Assembly (NCBI GenBank): GCA_963674755.2
Contig: CAXXVS010000003.1
Span: 1,568,001-1,632,000, forward strand
DNA: 64,000 nucleotides
Source of the DNA: Desulfobacterales bacterium
GTDB lineage: Bacteria; Desulfobacterota; Desulfobacteria; Desulfobacterales; UBA5852
Reading direction: 5' to 3'
Every line of letters starts with the position of its first letter. Within the stretch, counting starts at the first letter, position 1. Both the position numbers and the translations under genes were made by a program. Under the pieces are notes generated by a model, which had not been told where the DNA came from, searched no databases, and was given only the letters and a program-made list of their open reading frames with translations. This document shows positions 66 through 14,078 of this stretch, in pieces.

Positions 66-638
66 ATGACGCCGGCGAGTCTGGTTGCCCAGTTCGGCGG
101 GGTGGCGGTTTTCATCGGTGCCCTTCTGGAGGGCGAAACGGTCGTGCTGCTGGCGGCCATTCTGGTCCAACAGGGCCTGCTGGATTTTAAAAGCGTCCTG
201 CCGGCCGCCGCCCTGGGGGCCTTTGCGGGCGACCAGTTCTTCTTTCATCTGGGAAGGCATCACGGCCACCGCCTGCTTACCAAGCATCCCGCCTGGCGAC
301 GACGTGTCATGCGCGCGGTGGCTCTCCTGGAGCGCCGGCGGAAAGCGGTGATCCTGTTCTACCGTTTCTTATACGGGATGCGGGCGGTGATTCCTTTCCT
401 GCTCGGTTCCGGAAGTTGCGGAACATGGTTTTTTACCCTCCTCAGCGGGATTAGCGCCGTGGTATGGGCGGTGATCCTGGGGGCCGGCGGCTATTGGTTC
501 GGCGACCTTTTCCAGCATCTGCTCCGCCAGGGACGGCACATCCAGCAGGGCCTGCTGGGCGCCTTCATCCTCCTGATACTCCTTATCGCGGGATTGCGCC
601 GGTGGAAGCGGAAGCGGCGCTCGAACAAGGCCTCCTGA
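66..638 (+). CDS. DedA family membrane protein (SNARE-associated/YohD-like; putative lipid scramblase)
   Basis: LEGET motif, GAFAGDQFFFHLGR, RFLYGMR motif; hydrophobic helices typical of DedA. Confidence 0.9.
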   Translation: MTPASLVAQFGGVAVFIGALLEGETVVLLAAILVQQGLLDFKSVLPAAALGAFAGDQFFFHLGRHHGHRLLTKHPAWRRRVMRAVALLERRRKAVILFYRFLYGMRAVIPFLLGSGSCGTWFFTLLSGISAVVWAVILGAGGYWFGDLFQHLLRQGRHIQQGLLGAFILLILLIAGLRRWKRKRRSNKAS

Positions 639-940: not shown

Positions 941-1993
941 TCAGGTCAGATGACGGTGCACATGGAAGTGGATCGTGGCGCCGGTGACCTGACTTCTTCC
1001 CGTGTAGAGAAAAGACGCGATCCAGAACATTTGCAGGGTGAGCAGGATGGCGGGATGCCAGAGGGCCGCTAAGCCGTGCAGAAGCGGGGACGCAATGTAG
1101 GGCGTCGGTGGGGCCGGCAAAAAGGCCAACCCGACGGCCGCCAGGACGGCCAGCAGGCTCATGGCCTGGTAGGCACTGATGCGACCTTCTCCCCGGTAGT
1201 CGGCCCGCAGGAATTCGGAGGCAAACCGCCACAGCTGGCTGACAATGAGGGACAGCAGCAGGGCTGTCCGAAAGGCATTGTTGAGGAAGGCATAGATGCC
1301 GGCCAGCGCGGTAACGCTGTAGAGAACGGCGGTGATCCCCTGGATGGGAACCACCGGCACGCCTTCCAGGTGATGGGCATAGGCGATCTTGCGTGTCGCG
1401 CCGAAGAAGGTGAAGTGCCAGCGACCGAGCAAGGTCCGCATCAGGGGGTGGATCTCCTGCAAGGGTTTGCCATAGCAGCAGCCGAAGCTGATACAGGCCA
1501 GGCGTCCGATCCCTTCCCCCCAACAATAGGCCAGGCTCACGGCAGAGAGAAAGGCCAGCGGACTGACCGTCGTGTGGAAATAGCGCGCGGCCAGGGGCCG
1601 GGCGAGGAAGACCACCGGCGGGGTCAGCAGCAGCCCCAGGAAAAAGGCCCCGCCGATGCTGAAGGTGTGCGGTTTTTTCTCCACCAGGCGTGCGATCAGA
1701 CGCGAGCCCGGCATACAAATCCCCAGGACGATCACCAGCACCATCAGGGTGTAGCCCAGCGGGATGCCGATGGTCGCGGTCAATACGATGAGCAGGGCGC
1801 AGGCCAGGGTATAGGCCGTGGCATTGAAGAAGCCGTAGGTGGTCAGGTTGAGGCCCTGCCAGCCCGTGGCGGTCTTGACGACGGGGATGGCGGCCAGGAA
1901 TTGCCACCGTTCACGGGTCAGGTAGCGGAAGGCCCAGCGGAACAGGCAATAGGTCAAGAGCGCACAGATTCCTACGAAAAGTTCATCAGCCAT
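941..1993 (-). CDS. Prolipoprotein diacylglyceryl transferase (Lgt) family protein, divergent paralog
   Basis: TTYGFF, GEGIGRLACISFGCCYGKP, WRFASEFLRAD motifs of the Lgt family; multiple TM segments; start overlaps the upstream psd-like stop. Confidence 0.8.
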   Translation of the reverse strand: MADELFVGICALLTYCLFRWAFRYLTRERWQFLAAIPVVKTATGWQGLNLTTYGFFNATAYTLACALLIVLTATIGIPLGYTLMVLVIVLGICMPGSRLIARLVEKKPHTFSIGGAFFLGLLLTPPVVFLARPLAARYFHTTVSPLAFLSAVSLAYCWGEGIGRLACISFGCCYGKPLQEIHPLMRTLLGRWHFTFFGATRKIAYAHHLEGVPVVPIQGITAVLYSVTALAGIYAFLNNAFRTALLLSLIVSQLWRFASEFLRADYRGEGRISAYQAMSLLAVLAAVGLAFLPAPPTPYIASPLLHGLAALWHPAILLTLQMFWIASFLYTGRSQVTGATIHFHVHRHLT

Positions 1994-3068
1994 CGGATCT
2001 TCCTTTCACGGCGATGGTGGCGCGCACCTGAACATCCGTTTCCACGAGCCGTTGCCCGAAAGCAGCCGAAAAACGGCTTTGGGCGGATTCATGGTGCTGG
2101 TTGGCAAGGATATCGCGGCAGAAGCGCACGCGGTCTTTCTGAAAGATCAGCACATCCACCGAGCTGCCGGGCCGGTAGAGGCTTTTGGGCTGGCCCCGTT
2201 TGAGAAACATGCCCGGCACCACGGGGCGGGGGGCGTCATAGCGCCGATCACTGTAACATTGAACGATATCGCCGATCATCAGGGCCACAATTTCGATCAT
2301 GGCCACATATCCGATGCCGCTGCCGCCGGGAACGGCGGTGTCGATAACGGTGACGACCCGGCGGTTTTTGGAGTAGGGGGTCACCATACGGACCACAGCA
2401 CCCGGGTTGCAGGAGTGGTAGCCGCCCTGGATTTCGTAGATATCGACCACCCGCCCGGAAACCGGCAGGTGATTGTAGTGATACTTTTCCGGGGTCAACC
2501 GGAAGATCGCGAATTGCCCCTCCCGGAAGGTTTCCCGCCACAGGGGCTTGTCGGCGCCCAGCAGCTCCTCGTAATCGAAGAATTTTTCCTTGAGAAAAAG
2601 CAGCGACTGCTGCGCGAAGGAGCCTGCTAGCATGCGGGCATCGGCTGGCGACACGATACGGTCCGGCTGGGCTGACATGGGCCTGAAGCGCCAGAAGCGG
2701 ATCTGGCGTTCAAACAGGCGGCGCGGGGAGGTCAGGGTTCCCGGGGCCAGGCATTCCGCCAGCGGGATGGCCAGCTTGCGGACCATGCGGTCGACGGCCG
2801 CGGGTGTGCGCCGGGGCGGAAAATCGAATTGCCAGAAAGCGCAGCCGTCGTTGACCCGGCGGGAGGTCAATTGCTTGAAGAGGCGGGGCGTGCTTTCCCG
2901 GGCCCGGGAATAGAGCCATTGCAGGAGGCGGTCGGCCAGCAGGTGTTCGGTGACCACCTGGCCGGTGTTTCGCCGGACAAATTGGTGGGCACCCGGAGGG
3001 AGCGTCTTCCCCCGTTGTTGATGATCGTCACCATACGGCCTGTGGGCCTGGATCAAATCCTCGGTCAT
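1986..3068 (-). CDS. Phosphatidylserine decarboxylase family proenzyme (pyruvoyl-dependent)
   Basis: VSPADAR (Asp), FRLTPEKYHYNH (His), YRPGSSVDVL (G|S self-cleavage motif); ATG at 3068 overlaps the upstream TGA (ATGA). Confidence 0.85.
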   Translation of the reverse strand: MTEDLIQAHRPYGDDHQQRGKTLPPGAHQFVRRNTGQVVTEHLLADRLLQWLYSRARESTPRLFKQLTSRRVNDGCAFWQFDFPPRRTPAAVDRMVRKLAIPLAECLAPGTLTSPRRLFERQIRFWRFRPMSAQPDRIVSPADARMLAGSFAQQSLLFLKEKFFDYEELLGADKPLWRETFREGQFAIFRLTPEKYHYNHLPVSGRVVDIYEIQGGYHSCNPGAVVRMVTPYSKNRRVVTVIDTAVPGGSGIGYVAMIEIVALMIGDIVQCYSDRRYDAPRPVVPGMFLKRGQPKSLYRPGSSVDVLIFQKDRVRFCRDILANQHHESAQSRFSAAFGQRLVETDVQVRATIAVKGRSDG

Positions 3069-5488
3069 GGGGTTTCCTCCGCTGCGAGGTCTTCTTCCGC
3101 CCGGCGCTGCTGCAGGGTCGATAGGATAAAGAGATGAATGAGTTTTTCCAGGGTCCCCTCCGATGCCGTCTCGAAGAGCAGGGCTTGCCGGTGACGGCCG
3201 ACATACCCTTCGGCGCTCTGCCCCTTGAGCAGTTGGTAAAGGGGGCGGTTGTAGCGCCCCTGCCGCCAGGCCTGGGGGGCATCGATGGCGGCCAGGTCTT
3301 CCTGCAGGCAATCCAGCCCTTCTTCCATCTGCCGGCGGCGCAGGGTGTCGCGGTAGTATTGTTCGGCCGCCCGGTTGAAGACTTCGGCCGGCAGCTTCAG
3401 GGGGGCGCGGGCCCCGGCGGTGTCCAGAATGCCCCGGGTCAGCCGGTCGGCCGCCGAAGCGCCGGGGGTCTGAAGGCGGGCTTCCAGGTCGTCGAGGAGT
3501 TCCTCCGCGCCGAATTGCGCAACGAGCTCCCGGGCCTCCCGCCGCAGAACCCGTACCAGGGCCAGGCGGTATTCCGCCACCTTCACACGGATATAGCCGG
3601 GATAGCGGTGGCTGAGGCGGGTGGCACGCACCTCTTGCAGCAGACGTCCCAAAAACCGGTTGCGGCTCTGGCGGTGAATATAAACGGTGGGGATGCCGAT
3701 GGCGGCGCTGAAAAAAATCTGGCGGCGCTCACTCTCGATGCGGGGCGTGTCTGGGATGTCGGCATGCCGGATGCCGTCACGGAAGATGTACTGCAGCGCC
3801 AGCGCGGAGAGCAGGACCTGCAGGGTTGCCGCCGGTTCCAGATCACAGCGAAAGCTTTGGAACTGGCTGTAGTGGCGTCCTTCGAAACCGGCAAACCCCA
3901 TGACGTCATATTGCCGCAGACGATAGAGCAGATAGAGCGGCATGGCCGTGTGGAAGATGCCCATGGCGGCCAGGTCGCTTTTCAGTTTGGCCTCGCTGCC
4001 GAGCTGTCCGCCGAGGGCGCCCGAGGTACGGGTGCTCATCAGGCAGGCAAAGTAGTCGATGAGCCGGAAGTCCAGCACGAAATCCCCCTCGAGTCCCGGC
4101 AGGCGTCCCAGGGTACGGTCGATCCAGTCCGGTCCGAAGGGGGTCACGGGCGTGCCGCCGAGGTTCATGTGGGCTTTCTTCTTCCAGCGTCGCCAGATCA
4201 TGCGCAGGTGCGTTTCCGTCAATTCGTGCGGCAAAAATCCCAGTGCCCGTTCGGGATGCATGTCGCCAAAATCCAGCCGATAGGGGGCCCCGCTGTAGGT
4301 GCCCACGAAAAGCGGCAGAAAATGCTCCATGATTTTGATGGCCAGATCCCCCAGCCATTTTTCCTCCCGGGGACCGAAACCGGAGCCCGGATCCGCGCGC
4401 CGCCGGCTCAATTGCCGGCTGCCGATGCTCAGGTGGGTGCCATTGTTGGCCAGGCTGATATTGGAGAGCGTGGGCAGCACCACCAGATTGCGGGTGATGA
4501 TGCCGGCGTCGCGCAGTTTGTTGACGGCATTGAGTTGGCTGCGGGAGAGCACTTTGTGGCAACGGGCCATGTAGGCCTGCTTTTCTTCCCCGCAATCCCA
4601 CCCGGAGAGACAGGGACTCATGAACAGCTCCCGGTAGTAGGCGTCCGGGATGAGGGTATTCAGGTGCTTTTGGCGCTGGGGGGGATGGGGGGCCATATAG
4701 ATCAGGGCCCGTTGTCCCCGGTTGAGCAGGCTGAAGCGGCGGTTGGCGTACATCACCAGCAGATGGCAGAGCAGGAGGCGTTTGGCGGTTTCCCGGGCAA
4801 TGGCGGCCCCCTGCCGTATCCCGGCGTCGAGTCGCGGGGTATAGAAAGAGTGGGTTTCAGGCGAGGTATTGTCGCTGATGAAATGGGTCATCATGCGGCG
4901 GGCCTGGGAGCGGATCATGGTGTCGGTCAGGGGCGCACTGACGGATTCGGCCAGGGCCAGCTTCAGCAGATAGCTGATGGGCACCCGGATCAGATCTTCA
5001 CCCTTGCGCCGGCAGCGGAAGCGGTCCGCATCGCCGCGCAGGGGGCTTTGGGGGTTTGTCTTGTCCGCCCGCAGGTCTTCGGCCAGGGTCATGCGGCTGT
5101 AAGAGGACAGACCGTCTTCGGGGAATTGTACCCAGCTGTTTTCCCACAGCCCGTCGGCGTTGTCGTTGATATAGGCTTCCAGCTTGTCTTTCAATCGGGG
5201 GGAGGTATCGCCGGCCAGAGCCATCCGGCAGACGTTTTCGAAAACTTCCGAAGTGGCCACCGACCTGGGCAAATCGACCTGGGCCGCCTCCCCGGCCACT
5301 GCGGCCTGAATTTCGTTTTCAGCCCCCGTGGTGGTATCTTCCGGGCTGAAAGGCAGGGTGCGTGCCAGGGCCTCGGGCGATCGGTCGTCGATGCCCAATT
5401 GTTTGGCCAGTGTGGCGGCCTCACCCGGCTGAACAGGGGTGAAGGCCTCCGGTCGGATTACGTTGGCGGCGGTTGAAGATGACATCAT
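3065..5488 (-). CDS. 807-aa protein, predicted glutamate-cysteine ligase/YbdK-like carboxylate-amine ligase fold
   Basis: Long ORF with AAGGA RBS; ordered motifs TGAENEIQ, PHPPQ, NNGTHLSIG, HFLPLFVGTYSGAPY, YRLR...FEGRH parallel YbdK/GCS2 motifs (by-eye alignment). Confidence 0.6.
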   Translation of the reverse strand: MMSSSTAANVIRPEAFTPVQPGEAATLAKQLGIDDRSPEALARTLPFSPEDTTTGAENEIQAAVAGEAAQVDLPRSVATSEVFENVCRMALAGDTSPRLKDKLEAYINDNADGLWENSWVQFPEDGLSSYSRMTLAEDLRADKTNPQSPLRGDADRFRCRRKGEDLIRVPISYLLKLALAESVSAPLTDTMIRSQARRMMTHFISDNTSPETHSFYTPRLDAGIRQGAAIARETAKRLLLCHLLVMYANRRFSLLNRGQRALIYMAPHPPQRQKHLNTLIPDAYYRELFMSPCLSGWDCGEEKQAYMARCHKVLSRSQLNAVNKLRDAGIITRNLVVLPTLSNISLANNGTHLSIGSRQLSRRRADPGSGFGPREEKWLGDLAIKIMEHFLPLFVGTYSGAPYRLDFGDMHPERALGFLPHELTETHLRMIWRRWKKKAHMNLGGTPVTPFGPDWIDRTLGRLPGLEGDFVLDFRLIDYFACLMSTRTSGALGGQLGSEAKLKSDLAAMGIFHTAMPLYLLYRLRQYDVMGFAGFEGRHYSQFQSFRCDLEPAATLQVLLSALALQYIFRDGIRHADIPDTPRIESERRQIFFSAAIGIPTVYIHRQSRNRFLGRLLQEVRATRLSHRYPGYIRVKVAEYRLALVRVLRREARELVAQFGAEELLDDLEARLQTPGASAADRLTRGILDTAGARAPLKLPAEVFNRAAEQYYRDTLRRRQMEEGLDCLQEDLAAIDAPQAWRQGRYNRPLYQLLKGQSAEGYVGRHRQALLFETASEGTLEKLIHLFILSTLQQRRAEEDLAAEETP

Positions 5489-5726
5489 GGCTTTTCCTTA
5501 AGAGCGCAAACGGGTTACCATCTTTCACCCTGCGATATAGGGCCGTTATGTTGGCGGGGGATTAACGTCAGGCTATTTTTGGGTGAGGGAATGGAAGGCG
5601 GCCGGCCTGACAAATGGGTTTAACGGCGAAGCGACTGCCAGATTCTTTTCCTGACGGGGTGATTCGTCGACCCGCCAGCGCAACCATAGACCCGCAAGGC
5701 TTCAAGGGGATCAGGCCATTTTCTTT

Positions 5727-5811: not shown

Positions 5812-6210
5812 ATGGCGGAAAACAAAAAACAGATCAGCCCGACCGATGTGACTTTCCGGCTGTTCGAACTCATCACGGACATGACCTATGAGGAACAGCT
5901 GGTTCTGCTCGAAGAGCTCGAAAAAAAGAAAACGCGGCGCACCCGCCGCCACAAGCGCCGCGAAACCAGCCTTACCGTCTATTACGCCACCCACGACCGT
6001 GCCTATCGCGATACCATCCAGAATATCAGTCCCACCGGAGTGTTTATCGAAACCCGGGAGCCCTTTGACGTGGGCCAGGAAATCCTGCTCAATTTTACGC
6101 CTTCGCGCAATGCCGATCCCATCAAGGTCCGGGGGAAAGTGGTGCGCCTCACCGATGAGGGCATCGGGGTGAAATTCGTGCGGCCGGTCAGCAAAGACCG
6201 TTCGCCATAA
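5812..6210 (+). CDS. PilZ domain protein (c-di-GMP receptor)
   Basis: RRHKR (RxxxR) and NISPTG ([D/N]xSxxG) motifs, GIGVKF; GGAGG RBS. Confidence 0.9.
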   Translation: MAENKKQISPTDVTFRLFELITDMTYEEQLVLLEELEKKKTRRTRRHKRRETSLTVYYATHDRAYRDTIQNISPTGVFIETREPFDVGQEILLNFTPSRNADPIKVRGKVVRLTDEGIGVKFVRPVSKDRSP

Positions 6211-6226: not shown

Positions 6227-7993
6227 TTACGGCAGATAGATCGAAAATGTGCTGCCCTCGCCCAATCGGCTGTCCACCTTAATCTCGCCCTCGTGCGCCT
6301 GCACGATATGCTTGACGATTGCCAGCCCTAAACCCGTACCGCCGAGCTGGCGGCTGCGGGCCTTGTCCACCCGATAGAACCGTTCGAACAGACGCGGCAG
6401 GTTGCGCTTGGCGATACCGCAACCGTAGTCGCGGATGTGAATGGCCGTCAGGCCTTCGTGCTTTTCAGCCCGGATTTCCACCCGGCTGTGCTCGGCACTG
6501 TATTTGACGGCATTGTCCAGGAGATTGACGATGGCCTGTTCCAGCAGGGTCGCGTCCACGGTGGCATACAGCGCTTCACCGCCCGTGACCTGGAGCGCGA
6601 TCTGTTTGGTGTCGGCATTTTTCTGGCAAACCTGGATCGCGGTTTGGAAGATATCGCCCAGGCGCGTCGTATCGAGGTCGAGGGCTTCCCGGAAATTTTC
6701 GCGCTCGATACGCGAGAGGGACAGCAGGTCGTCCACAATGGCCTCGAGGCGATTGACATGTTTGGTAATGATGCCCAGGAAGCGGTGGGTGTCCTCCGGC
6801 GAATCCACTTCGCGGTTGTAGAGGGTCTCCACGTAGCCCTTGATGGCGGTCAGGGGCGTTTTGATTTCGTGGGAGACATTGGCCACGAAATCGCGGCGCA
6901 TGTTTTCCAGGCGTCGCAGGCGGGTGACGTCCGTCATGACCAGCAGATTGCCGATGCGGAGACCGGCCGCGTCGACGATGGGCGAACTCTTGATGTTGAG
7001 CACCACCTCGCCCTGCTGGTAGAAGGTGATGTCGTCTTCCAGGGAGTCTTCGGCTTCCAGGGCCCGGCTCACGAAATTCTGCAAGGCCAGATTGCGGACC
7101 ACCTCCTGGATGCTGCGGCCCTTGACCCGCCCGCGGTCGCATTCGAACATTTCCGCTGCCAGGGGATTCATGCTCATGATGGCTTCGTTGGTGTCGATGG
7201 CCACCACGCCTTCCCGCATGCTCGACAGGACGGTTTCCAATTCGTTTTTCTGGGCGACCGCCGTGGCGATGCGATTGTTGAGGCGGGAGGCCATCTCGTT
7301 CATGGCGCTGGCCAGCCCGGCCAACTCCTCGGTGCGGGGCAGGGGCAGCTTGTGATTGAGGTCGCCGCCGGCAAAGGCGTCGGCCCCCTGCTTGAGCATT
7401 TCGATGGGGTGACTGATCTTGCGGGCCGCCAGGAGACTGATCAGCCCTACCATCACAGCGATGAGCACGCCCCCGCCGACCATCCGCCAGTGCAGGGCCC
7501 GCATCTGGTCTTCCAGGAAGGTCACGGCCAAAGCGGCCCGCACGACCCCCTCCAGGCGCCCCTTGCGCATCACGGCCTCGGCCACGTACATCAAGCGCCG
7601 GTCGAGGGTTTTGCTATAGCGCACGGAGCGTCCCGTGCCGCCGCGCATGGCCTCCTGGATTTCCGGGCGGTGGCCATGATTATCCATGTGGGCCGGGTTC
7701 TCCTGGGAGTCCCCCACCACCCGGCCGTCGGGCAGGATGACGGTAAAGCGGGTCGAGGAGAGCTGGCCGGTCTCTTTGCAGATGCGGTCGATGGTCGCGG
7801 CCTGCAGGGGCTGCAGGTCGGCCTCGATCTGATAGCGCAGCAGGGCGATGCGGTCCTCGAGATTGGCCGCGGTTTGGTTCAGAAAGAAGATCTCCATGGT
7901 ATGGGAGGCGACCCAGACCGCGGCGATGATCGCAAGCAGCGTGACGGCCAGGAAGGAGGGAAAGATATGCCAAACGAGCCGGTTACGTTTCAT
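6227..7993 (-). CDS. phoR: Phosphate regulon sensor histidine kinase (HAMP-PAS-HisKA-HATPase)
   Basis: NHGHRPEI periplasmic motif, RRDFVANVSHEIKTPLT, LFERFYRVDKARSRQLGGTGLGL; coupled to the response regulator. Confidence 0.85.
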   Translation of the reverse strand: MKRNRLVWHIFPSFLAVTLLAIIAAVWVASHTMEIFFLNQTAANLEDRIALLRYQIEADLQPLQAATIDRICKETGQLSSTRFTVILPDGRVVGDSQENPAHMDNHGHRPEIQEAMRGGTGRSVRYSKTLDRRLMYVAEAVMRKGRLEGVVRAALAVTFLEDQMRALHWRMVGGGVLIAVMVGLISLLAARKISHPIEMLKQGADAFAGGDLNHKLPLPRTEELAGLASAMNEMASRLNNRIATAVAQKNELETVLSSMREGVVAIDTNEAIMSMNPLAAEMFECDRGRVKGRSIQEVVRNLALQNFVSRALEAEDSLEDDITFYQQGEVVLNIKSSPIVDAAGLRIGNLLVMTDVTRLRRLENMRRDFVANVSHEIKTPLTAIKGYVETLYNREVDSPEDTHRFLGIITKHVNRLEAIVDDLLSLSRIERENFREALDLDTTRLGDIFQTAIQVCQKNADTKQIALQVTGGEALYATVDATLLEQAIVNLLDNAVKYSAEHSRVEIRAEKHEGLTAIHIRDYGCGIAKRNLPRLFERFYRVDKARSRQLGGTGLGLAIVKHIVQAHEGEIKVDSRLGEGSTFSIYLP

Positions 7994-8682
7994 GGGGTTT
8001 CTTTAAGGCGGTAGCCGACACCGCGCACGGTTTCGATGATCTCGCCCCGGGGTCCGAGTTTCTTGCGCAGGCCCACGATCTGCACATCCACGGAGCGGTC
8101 GGTTACCGGATAATCGTCACCCCGTACCAGGTCCACGATTTGGGAGCGGGTAAAGACCCAGCCCGGCCGCCGGGCCAGGATGCTTAAGACCTGGAATTCG
8201 GTATAGGTCAGATTGACGGCTTGGCCCTCCACTATCACCGTGCGCCGCCCGGGATGGATTTCGATAGCGTGCACGTTGATGACGGCCGTGTCGTCCGGCG
8301 CGTCCTGGCCGATGCGCCGGATGATAGCCCGCGTGCGGGCCAGCAGAATGCGGGGACTGAAGGGTTTGGTGACGTAGTCATCCGCACCGAGTTCCAGGCC
8401 GGCCACCACATCCGCCTCTTCGCCTTTGGCAGTCAGCATGAGCACCGGGATGTGTTTGGTCTGGGGGTCGTTTTTCAGCTTGCGGGTCACTTCCAAGCCA
8501 TCGATGCCGGGCAGCATCAGGTCCAGGACGATCAAGGCGATGGCGCCGGAGCGGGCGGTCGCCAGTGCTTTTTCGCCGGTTGTGGCGACCTGGACGTCAT
8601 AGCCGTCCCGTTTGAGGTGGTGACGTACCAGTTCCAGGATATCTTCTTCGTCGTCGACGACCAGGATGGTTTCTTTAGCCAT
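7990..8682 (-). CDS. phoB: OmpR/PhoB family response regulator
   Basis: VVDDE, LDLMLPG, GLELGADDYVTKPF, RSVDVQI..LRKKL, ETVRGVGY; ATGA overlap with phoR. Confidence 0.85.
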   Translation of the reverse strand: MAKETILVVDDEEDILELVRHHLKRDGYDVQVATTGEKALATARSGAIALIVLDLMLPGIDGLEVTRKLKNDPQTKHIPVLMLTAKGEEADVVAGLELGADDYVTKPFSPRILLARTRAIIRRIGQDAPDDTAVINVHAIEIHPGRRTVIVEGQAVNLTYTEFQVLSILARRPGWVFTRSQIVDLVRGDDYPVTDRSVDVQIVGLRKKLGPRGEIIETVRGVGYRLKETP

Positions 8683-8754
8683 ATTCCCTTCCCGAGTGTG
8701 ATCCCGTCGTGTCTGGGTTTCTCTTGTGAGTCGCCCGCAGGAATACGTGCAGGA

Positions 8755-8782
8755 TGTTAGGGTTATGTTAATCCCGCATTAG
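8755..8782 (-). promoter_or_regulatory. Pho-box-like direct repeats upstream of phoB
   Basis: Minus strand CTAATG-N5-TTAACA-N5-CTAACA, exact 11-bp period, 72 nt upstream of the phoB start. Confidence 0.55.
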
Positions 8783-9318: not shown

Positions 9319-9948
9319 TCAGGTGGCCTTGCTCGTGGAAGCCTGCAGCTTTCCGGCACTGACCGGCACGCCTTCATGGGGTGTCCAGCGTGTGGTGCCC
9401 ATCTGACGCGGATCACGGGCGGCCTTGAGAATTTCGATGCTGCTCTTGAGACCTTTGTACAGGCGCGACATTTCAATGGCCATGCCGGCAATCTGGGCCA
9501 CGGCCTGGACAAAATTCACGTCTTCCAGGGTAAACTCCCACGATTCGGCGGTGTAGATGCGGAGCGCCCCGATCGGATTGCCGCGGGCCATGATGGGAAC
9601 CGCCAGGATGGAGGCGATGCCTTCCTTGACGGCTTCGTGCGGGTACTGGATCCGCGGGTCGTCCTTGACATCGTAGATCGCGACCGGGCCTTCCTTGAGC
9701 GCGTCGGCAATGGAGCGCAGGGCACTGATGGGGCCCTTCCGGAGATAGGCGTCGCTGAGCCCCATCGAGGCCGCGAGTTCAAGCTCCTGGCTCTTGGGGT
9801 TGATCAGGAACAGGGCGCAACCCTTGGCTTTCAGGGCGTCCCTGACACCGGTGACGCTCAGCAGGGCAATTTCGTCGAATTCCCGCGACATGGCGATGCG
9901 CTCGGTGATGACCAAAAGGGTTTCGTAGTTGAGCAGGTTCTTTTCCAT
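9319..9948 (-). CDS. Stand-alone GAF domain protein
   Basis: GLSDAYLRKGP, DPRIQYPHEAVKEGIASILAVPI, GALRIY; AAGGAGG RBS before ATG 9948. Confidence 0.85.
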   Translation of the reverse strand: MEKNLLNYETLLVITERIAMSREFDEIALLSVTGVRDALKAKGCALFLINPKSQELELAASMGLSDAYLRKGPISALRSIADALKEGPVAIYDVKDDPRIQYPHEAVKEGIASILAVPIMARGNPIGALRIYTAESWEFTLEDVNFVQAVAQIAGMAIEMSRLYKGLKSSIEILKAARDPRQMGTTRWTPHEGVPVSAGKLQASTSKAT

Positions 9949-10475
9949 GGGCTCCTCCTTTGGTTCTTGACGGGTGCTCCCGAGAGGATCCAACCTTATC
10001 CGCATGCCCCTCATCCCTGTCCGGCGGTGCGCTGCCTGCCGGCGTATGGCGGCAGTTGGCGACCGGCTTTGAAAATTCGCCGCCGGTCTCGGGGTAAGGG
10101 GCTGAAGGTTGGGGATGATGTCTAATCAGGGGGGACGCCGGGGCCCGTGTCTCGACACAGCAGGACCCATTTTGTCCGGAGTCGGCCGCAACCGGAAGAT
10201 GCGTCGGTCGCTGACCGGCGCAGGCGCCCCGAAGTCCATCCCTGACAATGGCATCGTTTTAGCGACCGGCCGTCAACATGCGGTACGGCTCATGGCAAGG
10301 TGCCGGTCGCGTCGGCATTCCAGACGATTGAGAGATGTATGAGGCGAAGGCGCACGCAGATGGAAGACGATGATTTTAACGTACCGATGCGCTGCATCCG
10401 GTAAGCGAAGTTGAGACCGGGTAGCTTTCGTAGCGAGGAGGAAATCAAGACAGGCATCTTTTTCGATGCTGATAA

Positions 10476-10702: not shown

Positions 10703-12883
10703 TCACTCCTTCGGCTGCTTTCCGGCGGTATCGGCGGGCATGGACGGCGATGGGGTTATCCCGGGCCAGGTGTAAACCAGGGGCGACGCGGCAACCGGCC
10801 ATTCCCCCTTGACCTCGTTCGTGGCGTCCTCGAAAACCAGGTAGCTGTAACGCCCGTAATGGGGGATCTTGCGGGCAATGGCCGCCTGATCGGCTTCCGG
10901 TCCGGGGAGCAGCACGGCCACGAAACGGCCGGATTGGCGGGGATGAGGCCAAACACCGAAAAAACTGGCCCGGCGGCCGTCGAAGGCCTGGTCCTCCAGG
11001 ACGAAGCCGTCCGGGCGAAGTTTGACGACATTTTCGACAAGTTGCCTTACCTCGGGAAGGGCAGGCAGGCCCAGGAACAGCCAGTCCCCGGCGTCCTCGG
11101 GCTGCGGGTCGAAATCCGCTTCCTGCCGGAGCACCACTTTGCTGCGCCCCAGCCCCTGGGCAAGCATATCCGCCGCTTGCCGCGCAATGGGGGAGAGCGG
11201 TCCGTCGGGCACCACTACGGCCAGGGGCGCCTCCCGTTTAAGGGCGTTGATGGCGGCGGGGATTTCTTCCGGCGCCAGGCGGCGGAAGACATCGACCTGG
11301 GGATCCGCTTCCAGGCGTGCCGGTGGGCCTTCCAGCGTGAAGGCAAAGGGGGCCCGGGCGCCTTCGATGGTGACGGGAACCTCGGCTTGCGCTCCGGGGC
11401 GCGATACCCTCAGGAGCGTCGTCACCCGATAGAAAGGCGCTTTCTGGCGCAAGACGCCCTCGACGCGATACGTCCCCGAGCCGGTCGTGTGGGTCTGGAT
11501 GTTCTCCAGCCACAGGACCGGCGCCCCCGGACGATCGAGCCACTGGTGGAAAAACCAGCCCAGTTCGCGCCCCCCGGTGGCTTCGAAGGCCCTTTGCAAC
11601 GTCAGCCAGTCGGCGGTGCGGTGCAGGCGGGCGGCGTAGAGGTGGCGCAGGCCCTTCCAGAAGGCCTCCTCTCCGATGGTCTGCCGCAGCATGTGGAAGA
11701 CCATGGCGCCCTTGTCATAGCCGATGGTCTGGGTCAGGGGGCTGGTGCGCCGGGTGAAGCGGCGCAAGGGGAAATCCTCCTCCGGCGTCACGATGGTGGC
11801 ATAGTTGCGCAGCAACTGCCGGCGGTCCTGGCGGGCCGCTGCGGGGGACGCCATTTCCTGGTAGAGATGCTCGGCGACGTAGCTGGTGAGGCCTTCGCTC
11901 CAGTTGCCGTCCGCAGGGTCGACCAGGACGCCGTTGCCCCACCAGCTGTGGGCGATTTCATGCCCCAGGCTGGTATGGACGATAAACGGCAGCCGCAAGA
12001 TCCGTCCCCCGATGAGGGTGTAGGATGGAAACCCGTAACCCGTGGGAAAGAAGTTCTCCACGACGGCGAATTGGGGAAAGGCATAGGGGCCGAAAAGGCT
12101 GTTATACAAGGACAGATAGCGGGCGGTGGCCTGCAGATAGGTGTTCGCCAGATCGCGGTCGTCGAAAAGGAAATAGGTCGCCGTGGGGATGTTGCCGGCG
12201 GTCGAAGAAGTGATGATGTACCGGCCGGCGGAAAGGGACAGAAGTCCGGCGGGGGGATCGACCTGCCATGTGGAAACCGTGCGGTCATCCGTTGTCTTGA
12301 CCTCCAGGGCGCGGCCGGCTGTCACGGCGCTCACCCCCTTGGGGGCCGTCACCTGCAAATGCACTGTTTCAACCGCGTCCCGGATGGCCGGATACCAGCC
12401 GGCGCCGCCCAGTAAAAGGGTCCCCCGCGGGCCGATGGTACCGCTGACCCCATAGCCGGGATTGTCGGTATTGACGGGCCGTTCGGGCGCCTGGTCCCTG
12501 AATTGGCCCTCGTAATGGATGACCAGTTCGACGCCGGTCTCACCGTCGCTTGCGGAGCGTTTCAGCACCAAAGCGTCGTTGGTGCGCACAACAGGGCGCG
12601 ATTGCCCATCGACTTGGAAGGACGTGACACGGAGATGGGGGTTCAGCCCGATGGTCAACTTCTTCCAGCCGCAGTTCGCGATCGTGATGCGGTCCGTTCC
12701 GGACAATCCGGCCTGCGCCGGCCGCAGGGTCACCTGGAGGTCGTGGAAGGCCTCGCAGGCACCACTGCTGGTTGTTGTCATGAGCCATATGGCCAGTGAG
12801 GCAAGGCCGATCGACAAGCGGCGGCCAGGTCCGGCCGGATGGGGGGTGTCGGCATCAGCCTTCCAACGATCCGTCTCGGGCAT
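10703..12883 (-). CDS. M1 family zinc aminopeptidase, probably exported
   Basis: HEIAH-x18-E (GHEIAHSWWGN...WSEGL), GYDKGAMVFHMLR; hydrophobic N-terminal segment; start chosen at ATG 12883 (AAGGA RBS). Confidence 0.85.
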   Translation of the reverse strand: MPETDRWKADADTPHPAGPGRRLSIGLASLAIWLMTTTSSGACEAFHDLQVTLRPAQAGLSGTDRITIANCGWKKLTIGLNPHLRVTSFQVDGQSRPVVRTNDALVLKRSASDGETGVELVIHYEGQFRDQAPERPVNTDNPGYGVSGTIGPRGTLLLGGAGWYPAIRDAVETVHLQVTAPKGVSAVTAGRALEVKTTDDRTVSTWQVDPPAGLLSLSAGRYIITSSTAGNIPTATYFLFDDRDLANTYLQATARYLSLYNSLFGPYAFPQFAVVENFFPTGYGFPSYTLIGGRILRLPFIVHTSLGHEIAHSWWGNGVLVDPADGNWSEGLTSYVAEHLYQEMASPAAARQDRRQLLRNYATIVTPEEDFPLRRFTRRTSPLTQTIGYDKGAMVFHMLRQTIGEEAFWKGLRHLYAARLHRTADWLTLQRAFEATGGRELGWFFHQWLDRPGAPVLWLENIQTHTTGSGTYRVEGVLRQKAPFYRVTTLLRVSRPGAQAEVPVTIEGARAPFAFTLEGPPARLEADPQVDVFRRLAPEEIPAAINALKREAPLAVVVPDGPLSPIARQAADMLAQGLGRSKVVLRQEADFDPQPEDAGDWLFLGLPALPEVRQLVENVVKLRPDGFVLEDQAFDGRRASFFGVWPHPRQSGRFVAVLLPGPEADQAAIARKIPHYGRYSYLVFEDATNEVKGEWPVAASPLVYTWPGITPSPSMPADTAGKQPKE

Positions 12884-13006
12884 TCGGTTGTGTTCCTTAT
12901 GGCAATTGGGGTTGTGGCGGTAAGGTAAGCCGCGTGGCGGGCATGTCAAAAGGCGTGATGGCATTGCCCCGCCCGGGGTTGTGATCATTTTATTGACGAC
13001 AAGGGT

Positions 13007-13035
13007 TTGACCCTGCCCGTCAACTAGCATATAAA
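13007..13035 (+). promoter_or_regulatory. Putative sigma70 promoter for the kinase operon
   Basis: TTGACC-N17-TATAAA. Confidence 0.45.
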
Positions 13036-13190
13036 TATAAGATTCAACAGGTTCTTTGCCAGTTCGATACTGTTGACCCACCTGCGGTGCAACCAGAAAC
13101 GCCAGACAAAAGAGAAGTCCCTGGTGGTGGAAGGCTGCCGACGGGTGCGCAGCGGCGGACGCGCTGCAGATCTTGGATACGGCGGAGATC

Positions 13191-14078
13191 ATGGGTGCCA
13201 TTGCCAAATTAAACGTTGACCATCTGATCGGTAAAGAGGTCGGAACCTCCACCATCCTCAAGGAGCTCGCCCGGGGGGGGATGGCCATCGTATTCATCGC
13301 CTATCAGCGCACCTTGAAGCGCCAGATCGCCTTGAAGATTCTCCCTAAAAGCATGCTTACGCCCAAGACCGCCACGCGTTTTCAATCCGAGGCCGAGTCG
13401 GCGGCGATCCTCTCCCATCCCAACATCATACCGGTCTACGAGGTGGGGGAGACGGACGAATTTCTTTTCTTCACCATGCAGTTGGTGCAGGGGAAGTCCC
13501 TGGGACGCTTCATCCAGATGGTGCAGAAAAACCTGTTGCCGTCCCGCCGCACGATTCCGGTCGACGAGGCGGTGCGCATTACCATAAAAGTTCTGGATGC
13601 ACTGGCTTACGCCCACGCCGAGGAGATCATCCACCGGGATATCAAACCGGACAACATCCTGATCGAGAGCCACACCCAGCGGCCCCTGATCACGGATTTC
13701 GGCGTGGCCAAGGTGTTGCGGGGGGAAGACGAAAATACGCCGATGATTCAAGGCACGCCGGTCTATATGCCCCCGGAACAGATCCTCGGCCGGAATGTGG
13801 ACGCCCGCAGCGACATCTATGCCGTGGGGACCATGCTGTTTAAGATGCTGTCGCCGGATTTGCCTTTCCCGCCGTACAGCTCCAAGACGGATCTGCTCAA
13901 GCAGAAAATCCGCCGCAAGGACGGCATCTTCCTCAAGCCGCCGTCCGAGGTCAACCCTTATGTCGACGAGGCCATCGACCGGATTATCATAAAAGCGACG
14001 GCCTATCGCCAAGAGGATCGTTATGACGATTGCCGCTCGTTCATGCAGGATCTGGAACATTACCGCCAGACCCTTTGA
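13191..14078 (+). CDS. Hanks-type Ser/Thr protein kinase, catalytic domain only
   Basis: ARGGMAIVF, IALK, HRDIKPDN, DFG, GTPVYMPPE, RSDIYAVG; alternative TTG start at 13173. Confidence 0.92.
   Translation: MGAIAKLNVDHLIGKEVGTSTILKELARGGMAIVFIAYQRTLKRQIALKILPKSMLTPKTATRFQSEAESAAILSHPNIIPVYEVGETDEFLFFTMQLVQGKSLGRFIQMVQKNLLPSRRTIPVDEAVRITIKVLDALAYAHAEEIIHRDIKPDNILIESHTQRPLITDFGVAKVLRGEDENTPMIQGTPVYMPPEQILGRNVDARSDIYAVGTMLFKMLSPDLPFPPYSSKTDLLKQKIRRKDGIFLKPPSEVNPYVDEAIDRIIIKATAYRQEDRYDDCRSFMQDLEHYRQTL

Follow-up and report, generated by a model that had tools for sequence, protein, structure and literature searches.

A separate family of predicted glutamate-amine ligases in a three-gene operon that may build a phosphorus-free cysteine lipid

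The window analysed here is a 64,000-nucleotide stretch of the genome of a Desulfobacterales bacterium (assembly GCA_963674755.2, contig CAXXVS010000003.1, positions 1,568,001 to 1,632,000; coordinates below count from its first letter). Three overlapping genes on its minus strand encode an 807-residue protein that resembles ATP-dependent glutamate-amine ligases in its predicted fold and its conserved residues, a pyruvoyl decarboxylase resembling phosphatidylserine decarboxylase (PSD-like) and an Lgt-like membrane transferase. Probably, this new ligase family builds γ-glutamylcysteine (γ-Glu-Cys), an inside-out paralog of Lgt lipidates it from phosphatidylglycerol (PG), and a paralog of Psd trims the conjugate to a zwitterionic thioether lipid, by which phospholipid would be converted into a phosphorus-free lipid and its phosphate freed. 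The candidate product is the class of N-butyramide cysteine glycerols (BACys) reported from a sulfate reducer under phosphate limitation. The operon consists of:

3065..5488, minus strand: gene 1, 807-residue ligase (open reading frame (ORF) list, structure model, fold matches)
1986..3068, minus strand: gene 2, 360-residue PSD-like pyruvoyl decarboxylase (PF02666, E 2e-37)
941..1993, minus strand: gene 3, 350-residue Lgt-like transferase with nine predicted membrane helices (PF01790, E 1e-9)

The ligase stop codon and the decarboxylase start codon share an ATGA overlap, and the decarboxylase and transferase genes overlap by 8 bp. On the opposite strand the ORF 3134-5476 was rejected as a gene; it is taken as an antisense shadow of the ligase because it is fragmented in most relatives.

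Predicted fold and conserved residues of the ligase

The ligase reaches a maximum hydropathy of 1.25 in 19-residue windows and is therefore a soluble protein without a membrane span. Its AlphaFold2 model has a predicted local distance difference test score (pLDDT) of 94.2 and a predicted TM-score of 0.94. Foldseek returned nothing at E≤0.001, its best match having an E-value of 1.2e-3 at a probability of 1.00, with GshF, GshA and YbdK ranked at the top. In a second, independent structural search over 48,161 chains, ranks 1 to 19 were all of the type of glutamine synthetase (GS), glutamate-cysteine ligase (GCS), PafA or Dop, with Z-scores from 16.9 to 6.3, and rank 20 had a Z-score of 4.3. The best match was GshF (Z 16.9, root-mean-square deviation (rmsd) 4.1, 379 residues aligned), followed by E. 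coli GshA (Z 16.6, rmsd 3.9, 408 aligned) and YbdK (Z 15.7, rmsd 3.6, 338 aligned), then Dop (Z 14.4), PafA (Z 14.2) and the glutamine synthetases. Sequence identity to GshA, GshF and YbdK in these structural alignments is 12-14%.

In the model the conserved residues of the ligase fall on six short strands. The principal elements are:

5312..5320, minus strand: E57-x-E59 (strand 52-59), predicted to bind metal (conservation and model strands)
4856..4873, minus strand: D206-N-T-S-P-E211, second acidic strand (203-206, 209-213; conservation and model)
4427..4447, minus strand: N348-N-G-T-H352-x-S354 on strand 351-357, a conserved histidine with Ser or Thr at the place of the second histidine of YbdK
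4091..4216, minus strand: conserved basic-aromatic insertion, residues 425-466 (composition over 137 sequences)
3875..3916, minus strand: R525 (strand 522-525) and E536-x-R538 (strand 534-540; conservation and model)

The metal-binding role of E57-x-E59 is presumed by analogy with GshA and YbdK. Conservation was counted over the ungapped rows of an alignment of 146 ligase homologs. G55, E57 and E59 are each present in 137 of 137 sequences, H352 and P402 in all 146, and D206, N207, P210 and E211 each in 142 of 142; R525 (143/144), E536 (143/145) and R538 (141/143) are nearly as constant. The sole member of the alignment with Gln in place of R525 (L004:5944-8415) belongs to an operon that is interrupted by a block of PHP-GT4, OlsF-like and PhoB-like genes and has a gene resembling monoglycosyldiacylglycerol (MGDG) synthase upstream. 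The insertion of residues 425-466 averages 9.3 Lys or Arg, 1.9 Asp or Glu and 6.3 Trp, Phe or Tyr over 137 sequences, a composition that makes contact with the membrane or with a partner protein possible.

The original prediction, made from the sequence, had read a series of YbdK-like motifs in this ORF and proposed a GS/GCS/PafA fold with an intact metal- and ATP-binding E-x-E, H, R and E-x-R set. All motifs that it quoted are present in the order claimed, the fold agrees with the model and its 19 top structural ranks, and this set of residues is close to invariant. Two of the motif equations hold in part. The loop MAPHPPQ is present and weakly conserved (P267 in 132 of 143 sequences, H268 in 92 and Q271 in 14), and the equation of NNGTHLSIG with the FGQHVHVG of YbdK holds for the invariant H352, whereas the second histidine of the YbdK HVH motif is replaced by S354 in 140 of 146 sequences and by Thr in five. 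The invariant D206-N207-x-S-P210-E211 strand, the downstream genes and the phosphate-starvation (Pho) context had no place in that prediction; the two downstream genes and the Pho context provide a hint as to the substrate of the ligase.

A family apart from YbdK and GshA

Neither Pfam nor NCBIfam contains a GS/GCS or a PafA/Dop family that matches the ligase at E≤1. The best Pfam match, DUF4031 at E 0.17, was judged to be due to chance, and nine homologs likewise hit no known Pfam family. PADLOC gave no match, chains of the Protein Data Bank (PDB) were matched neither by the single sequence nor by a profile, and in the ESM Atlas only unnamed clusters were found. Profile comparisons in which YbdK, GshA and Lgt of E. 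coli were each represented by one sequence were not significant: the probability for GshA was 0.18%, and YbdK was aligned with its wrong segment against YRL..FEG. In a profile-profile comparison with a set of 18 YbdK sequences (probability 1.5%, E 0.034) four of the five motif groups of the original prediction were matched, FEGRH being placed and YRLR not. Since these sequence matches are non-significant, the assignment to the GS/GCS group takes its significance from the fold match.

Of 7,996 candidates that were scored, 2,931 belong to the ligase family, which amounts to about 3,000 clusters when these are grouped at 90% identity. At 50% identity the family has 714 representatives, many of them fragments, among 1.84 billion. 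In 401 genomes of the phylum there were 44 strong ligase hits, one weak partial hit and none of intermediate score. By these sequence comparisons the ligase forms a separate, large and tight family that Pfam and NCBIfam miss, and by its predicted structure it is a GS/GCS/PafA-fold enzyme with a family of its own on the GCS/PafA side. The suspicion of a distinct subfamily with large insertions, about twice as long as YbdK, is thus borne out (807 residues vs 372), whereas membership of YbdK/GCS2 itself is not: PF04107 does not match, and the fit to GshF and GshA is at least equally good, the Z-scores of the three lying close together.

The closest relatives share features with the ligase and differ from it in others. 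GshA (PF04262; PDB 1v4g, 3nzt) and the glutamate-cysteine ligase domain of GshF (3ln7) have the same fold, the same order of E-x-E, acidic second strand, H, R and E-x-R, and the reaction proposed here; unlike them, the ligase is only 12-13% identical, is not matched by their hidden Markov models, carries large insertions and shows, in place of a glutathione context, a fixed linkage to two lipid enzymes. YbdK (PF04107; PDB 1tt4, 1r8g) shares fold and motif order, but has H-x-H for the H-x-S/T of the ligase, in which the HPF loop is unconserved. PafA and Dop (PDB 4bjr, 9cku) also have this fold; the ligase differs in its GCS-type E-x-R, its lipid-enzyme neighbours and the lack of a recurring target gene among the loci seen. 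No pup or proteasome genes were recognised among the recurring neighbours of 28 loci, the genomes themselves not having been searched for pup.

The decarboxylase and the transferase

The second protein has the Asp-His-Ser triad and the G-S-S/T self-cleavage motif of Psd and PsiD (PF02666): D143, H197 and S303, the latter within G-S-S-(T/V), are invariant in 22 of 22 sequences and match E. coli Psd. It scores below all NCBIfam cut-offs, including that of the equivalog, and, unlike Psd and PsiD, no partner of the serine-synthase type recurs beside it.

The model of the transferase superimposes on E. coli Lgt (5azc) with a Z-score of 13.0 and an rmsd of 3.8 over 232 residues, the next match having a Z-score of 5.7. 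Invariant in 21 of 21 sequences are R164, R256, E260 and R263, which a weak alignment maps to R143, R239, E243 and R246 of Lgt (PF01790; PDB 5azb/5azc). Arginines assigned to the catalytic centre by Mao et al. (PMC4728403) are retained in the transferase. In all 21 sequences the loops that bear the motifs contain 16-26 Lys or Arg, against 0-4 on the opposite side, and the catalytic face is therefore predicted to be cytoplasmic, whereas the active site of E. coli Lgt is periplasmic (PMC4728403). Besides this predicted inversion, the transferase differs from Lgt in its extra helices and in the small-molecule acceptor proposed for it; the transfer from PG to a thiol would be common to both. Ordinary psd and ordinary lgt genes are located elsewhere in the host genome.

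Conservation of the operon

Forty-seven loci were compared, of which 41 are non-redundant, six being close relatives of others. The order ligase, decarboxylase, transferase is found in 46 of them; in the 47th the latter two genes lie about 4 kb beyond the end of the locus. In the 401 genomes of the phylum, with subfamily cut-offs of 1e-20 for the Lgt-like and 1e-50 for the PSD-like protein, each of the three genes gave 44 strong hits, and 42 genomes have all three. Three genomes have only two, which is accounted for by contig ends in G129 and G191 and by internal deletions in G213. In the last (L118:1978-5238) the ligase and the transferase carry large deletions and the decarboxylase is whole, a sign either that the operon is decaying or that the assembly is faulty. 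In a close relative (L001:9585-10550) the transferase is broken across three frames, possibly by a sequencing error.

Roughly one genome in nine of the phylum sample carries the operon, as do some Acidobacteriota and relatives of anammox bacteria. Named carriers of the ligase include D. aliphaticivorans, Desulfococcus multivorans, Desulfonema ishimotonii, Desulfosarcina ovata, Trichlorobacter lovleyi, Geoanaerobacter pelophilus and Candidatus Wunengus, besides metagenome-assembled genomes of Acidobacteriota. There is no fourth gene that recurs in most of the loci and would be a candidate target of the ligase. In one locus (L056:4610-6817) a PHP-GT4 gene and a gene for a 735-residue protein, with no match in NCBIfam and none above the cut-off in Pfam, stand between decarboxylase and transferase. 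Directly after another operon, on the same strand (L048:3752-5519), lie a metallophosphoesterase gene and a GT4 gene, a pair that resembles plcP-agt.

Match to a phosphorus-free cysteine lipid

Under phosphate limitation Desulfatibacillum alkenivorans PF2803 exchanges its phospholipids for glucuronosyl lipids and BACys, and the latter rise from less than 1% to about 65% of the lipids (Ding et al. 2024, PMC11181052). The BACys structure was assigned tentatively from tandem mass spectra as butyramide plus cysteine, with a head ion C7H13O3N2S+ at m/z 205.064, and its diacylglycerol (DAG), acyl/ether glycerol (AEG) and diether glycerol (DEG) cores are those of PG and phosphatidylethanolamine (PE) (PMC11181052). 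Such common cores are expected if PG is the donor. The parts of PMC11181052 available to us name no genes for BACys.

Addition of γ-Glu-Cys to a diradylglycerol with loss of CO2 and H2O gives the published BACys formula in 10 of the 10 regular rows checked of Dataset S1, which holds 59 BACys rows, three with an extra oxygen being excluded. The computed head ion of the proposed product is 205.0641. When Glu was combined with each of 21 amino acids and CO2 subtracted, Cys alone fitted. The three excluded rows (BACys-OH-DAG, PMC11181052) carry one extra oxygen, as expected of the sulfoxide of a thioether lipid; a hydroxylated acyl chain would be the alternative. Dataset S1, as far as it was available, has no O9N2S row, the composition of an undecarboxylated diacyl form.

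The genome of D. alkenivorans DSM 16219, as named by NCBI, encodes a full-length ligase ortholog (P0381, WP_073478016.1, SAMN02745216_03986) with 53% identity over 769 residues and intact motifs. DSM 16219 is taken to be strain PF2803, for which PMC11181052 gives no DSM number. The BACys of this organism agree with the predicted product in formula, head ion, lipid cores and inducing condition.

Phosphate-starvation context and neighbouring genes

In the host the operon is situated between phoBR-like genes (6227-8682) and genes for a radical SAM protein, a PHP-GT4 fusion, phoU and pstCASB. On that side, opposite phoBR, the genes lie just beyond the edge of the window, the fusion, phoU and the pst genes at a distance of 2-11 kb. 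Relevant features within the window are:

6227..7993, minus strand: PhoR-like sensor kinase (NF046044 PnpS above cut-off; TIGR02966 phoR 306.9 bits, cut-off 334)
7990..8682, minus strand: PhoB-like response regulator (best TIGR02154 PhoB, 234 bits, under the cut-off of 296)
8751-8772: 11-bp repeat site upstream of the phoB-like gene (9.8 bits)
5567..5588, minus strand: best 11-bp direct repeat (Pho-box-like) upstream of the operon (7.5 bits, weak)

The gene of the PHP-domain/GT4 fusion, which may be a phospholipase and glycolipid synthase in one chain, and the radical SAM gene are divergent from phoU-pstCASB, with a strong 11-bp repeat (G000:C3:1557300-1567500); the fusion occurs in nine of the 47 loci and the radical SAM gene in six.

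Of the 41 non-redundant loci, 16 have Pho or phosphorus-free-lipid genes (pho/pst, PHP-GT4, Agt-, PlcP-, OlsF- and MGDG-synthase-like) no more than about 8 kb away, as against 46 of 3,331 18-kb windows of the host genome, a comparison whose queries were drawn from the same loci, whose control is a single genome and whose kin are non-independent. In 40 upstream regions a period of 11 bp was the best of seven (log-likelihood 100.5 vs 57.9-86.0; five shuffles 41.8-45.8). A repeat matrix built without the host genome and its close relatives and scored on 1,871 control promoters placed the host phoU promoter in the top 0.6%, that of pstC in the top 2.8% and, less clearly, that of phoB at 11.9%. As a definition of the regulon, a genome-wide scan with this matrix was discarded as too unspecific (2,313 sites at ≥9 bits). 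In many hosts PhoB probably activates the operon.

Further genes noted in the window are:

66..638, plus strand: DedA/VTT membrane protein, convergent (PF09335; in 5 of 47 loci, close relatives only)
5812-6210: small PilZ protein
9319-10014: stand-alone GAF protein
10703-13297: M1 aminopeptidase
13173-14078: Ser/Thr kinase-like ORF, assigned by motifs

The PilZ, GAF, aminopeptidase and kinase-like genes appear ordinary and are linked to the operon only in close relatives. As core parts of the system the DedA, PilZ and radical SAM genes were rejected on their recurrence (5 and 6 of 47 loci; 6 of 28).

Proposed pathway and alternative readings

In the proposed pathway the ligase would turn the γ-carboxyl group of glutamate into an activated acyl phosphate and couple it to the amine of cysteine. 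The cytoplasm-facing Lgt-like enzyme would then transfer a diacyl-, acyl/alkyl- or dialkylglyceryl group from PG to the thiol, yielding a thioether and freeing glycerol phosphate for reuse. Finally, the PSD-like enzyme would strip the α-carboxyl group from the glutamyl residue, the α-amine of which is free, to give S-diradylglyceryl-N-(4-aminobutyryl)cysteine; the last two steps could be interchanged. Decarboxylation by pyruvoyl enzymes requires a free amine beside the carboxyl group that is lost. The three folds supply the three changes which the formula needs, namely an amide, the loss of an α-carboxyl group and a diradylglyceryl group on the thiol. That the operon is the BACys pathway, whatever the order of its enzymes, appears quite likely; that the ligase makes γ-Glu-Cys as the first step, in the order given, has a little better than an even chance.

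Several observations weigh against this pathway, in addition to the limits of the neighbour comparison given above. The formula is not unique, since 4 of 462 amino-acid pairings fit it: it is also met by Gly-Met, by Ala-homocysteine and by Asp-homocysteine minus CO2, and γ-Glu-cysteamine, an isomer, would derive from the very amino acids of the proposed product. The term thioether is absent from the main text of PMC11181052 as available. Half the size of this enzyme would suffice for a ligase of small molecules, and its D206..P-E211 spacing resembles the D..HPE motif of Dop and PafA. In the transferase family H103 (HGG motif) and N146 of Lgt are absent, T-V/I-G/A-G-A and G-R-L-A-C standing in their places. 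With regard to regulation, 25 of the 41 loci have no Pho or phosphorus-free-lipid neighbour within about 8 kb and most such neighbours score below curated cut-offs; the repeat upstream of the operon itself is equalled by 29% of the control promoters, the pstS and radical SAM promoters are at background, and a free motif search was unstable, yielding the repeat in one run and another, T-rich motif in the following one.

Alternatively, the same operon could make the same lipid with the ligase acting at another step, either adding glutamate to membrane-bound S-diradylglyceryl-cysteine or -cysteamine or joining free 4-aminobutyrate to cysteine. The formula would be identical, S-diradylglyceryl-cysteine would presumably be a closer mimic of phosphatidylserine, and the basic-aromatic insertion, in a ligase with about 400 extra residues, could bind the membrane; if the decarboxylase used cysteine in the way in which Psd uses serine, the γ-Glu-cysteamine isomer would result. 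Glutamate is the usual substrate of GS/GCS enzymes, and the spectra of PMC11181052 were read as butyramide plus cysteine with the cysteine carboxyl group kept, so that we regard this order as rather unlikely. We give a smaller chance still to an operon that makes another, undescribed phosphorus-free lipid from glutamate and a different thiol, amine or hydroxyl acceptor, BACys arising from other genes. The Pho context and the three lipid-type folds are independent of the product, the ligase is remote in sequence from GshA, GshF and YbdK, and the loss of H103 may point to a non-thiol acceptor. Yet three enzyme chemistries match three formula changes, BACys and glucuronosyl lipids are the only phosphorus-free classes reported, in the sources as available, from a species with the ortholog, and both H103 and N146 vary among some Lgt proteins, H103 even in a working Lgt (PMC13251419).

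It is very improbable that the operon is a PafA/Dop-like system in which a protein carboxylate is tagged with an amino acid, then decarboxylated and lipidated, thereby anchoring cytoplasmic proteins to the membrane. The Z-scores of Dop and PafA, the D-x4-P-E spacing, the large extra surface of the ligase and the fact that proteins are the normal substrates of Lgt would suit it, but GshF, GshA and YbdK score above Dop and PafA, E-x-R is of the GCS type, the neighbours are lipid-remodelling genes, and no fourth gene found in most of the loci offers itself as a target. The slightest chance is left to an enlarged YbdK or GshA that supplies γ-Glu-Cys as a general redox thiol, its gene neighbours being mechanistically irrelevant. 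The host genome indeed has no match to PF04107 or PF04262, and PF04107, found in 5 of 14 control genomes by the same search, is matched in only 5 of the 44 ligase-bearing genomes; the overlapping frames speak against it, as does the fact that in many families the gene is almost always accompanied by two specialised paralogs. Two PF02955 hits in the host genome are weak and partial. The γ-Glu-Cys route to BACys remains our preferred reading.

Relation to known lipid remodelling and implications

In its proposed purpose and in its Pho linkage the operon resembles Agt and OlsF (PMC5193443), and D. alaskensis G20, from which no lipid of the BACys kind was reported, uses MGDG, GADG (a glycuronic acid diacylglycerol) as well as ornithine lipids (PMC5193443). 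Genes like agt, olsF and plcP stand beside the operon in some genomes. BtaAB and PlcP are further examples of such phosphate-starvation lipid remodelling. The operon differs from all of these in its enzymes, in the thioether peptide head group proposed and in the use of the phospholipid itself as donor; the proposed thioether has its counterpart in the diacylglyceryl-cysteine that Lgt makes from PG (PMC13251419). Replacement of phospholipids during phosphate starvation and each of the three folds are known in kind, whereas the enzyme family, the gene combination and the proposed chemistry are undescribed within the literature searched. No paper on the ligase family, the operon or BACys genes and no usable table of transcripts was found there, most subscription papers lying outside that search.

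The analysis offers three specific candidate genes for a lipid which, in a sulfate reducer under phosphate limitation, reaches about 65% of the membrane and for which the available parts of the source name no genes. If it is true, Lgt chemistry would extend from proteins to a small molecule and to the opposite side of the membrane, and the GS/GCS superfamily would gain a large family that Pfam and NCBIfam miss. The operon would then serve as a gene marker by which anaerobes of phosphate-poor sediments and waters that produce sulfur aminolipids could be told from others.

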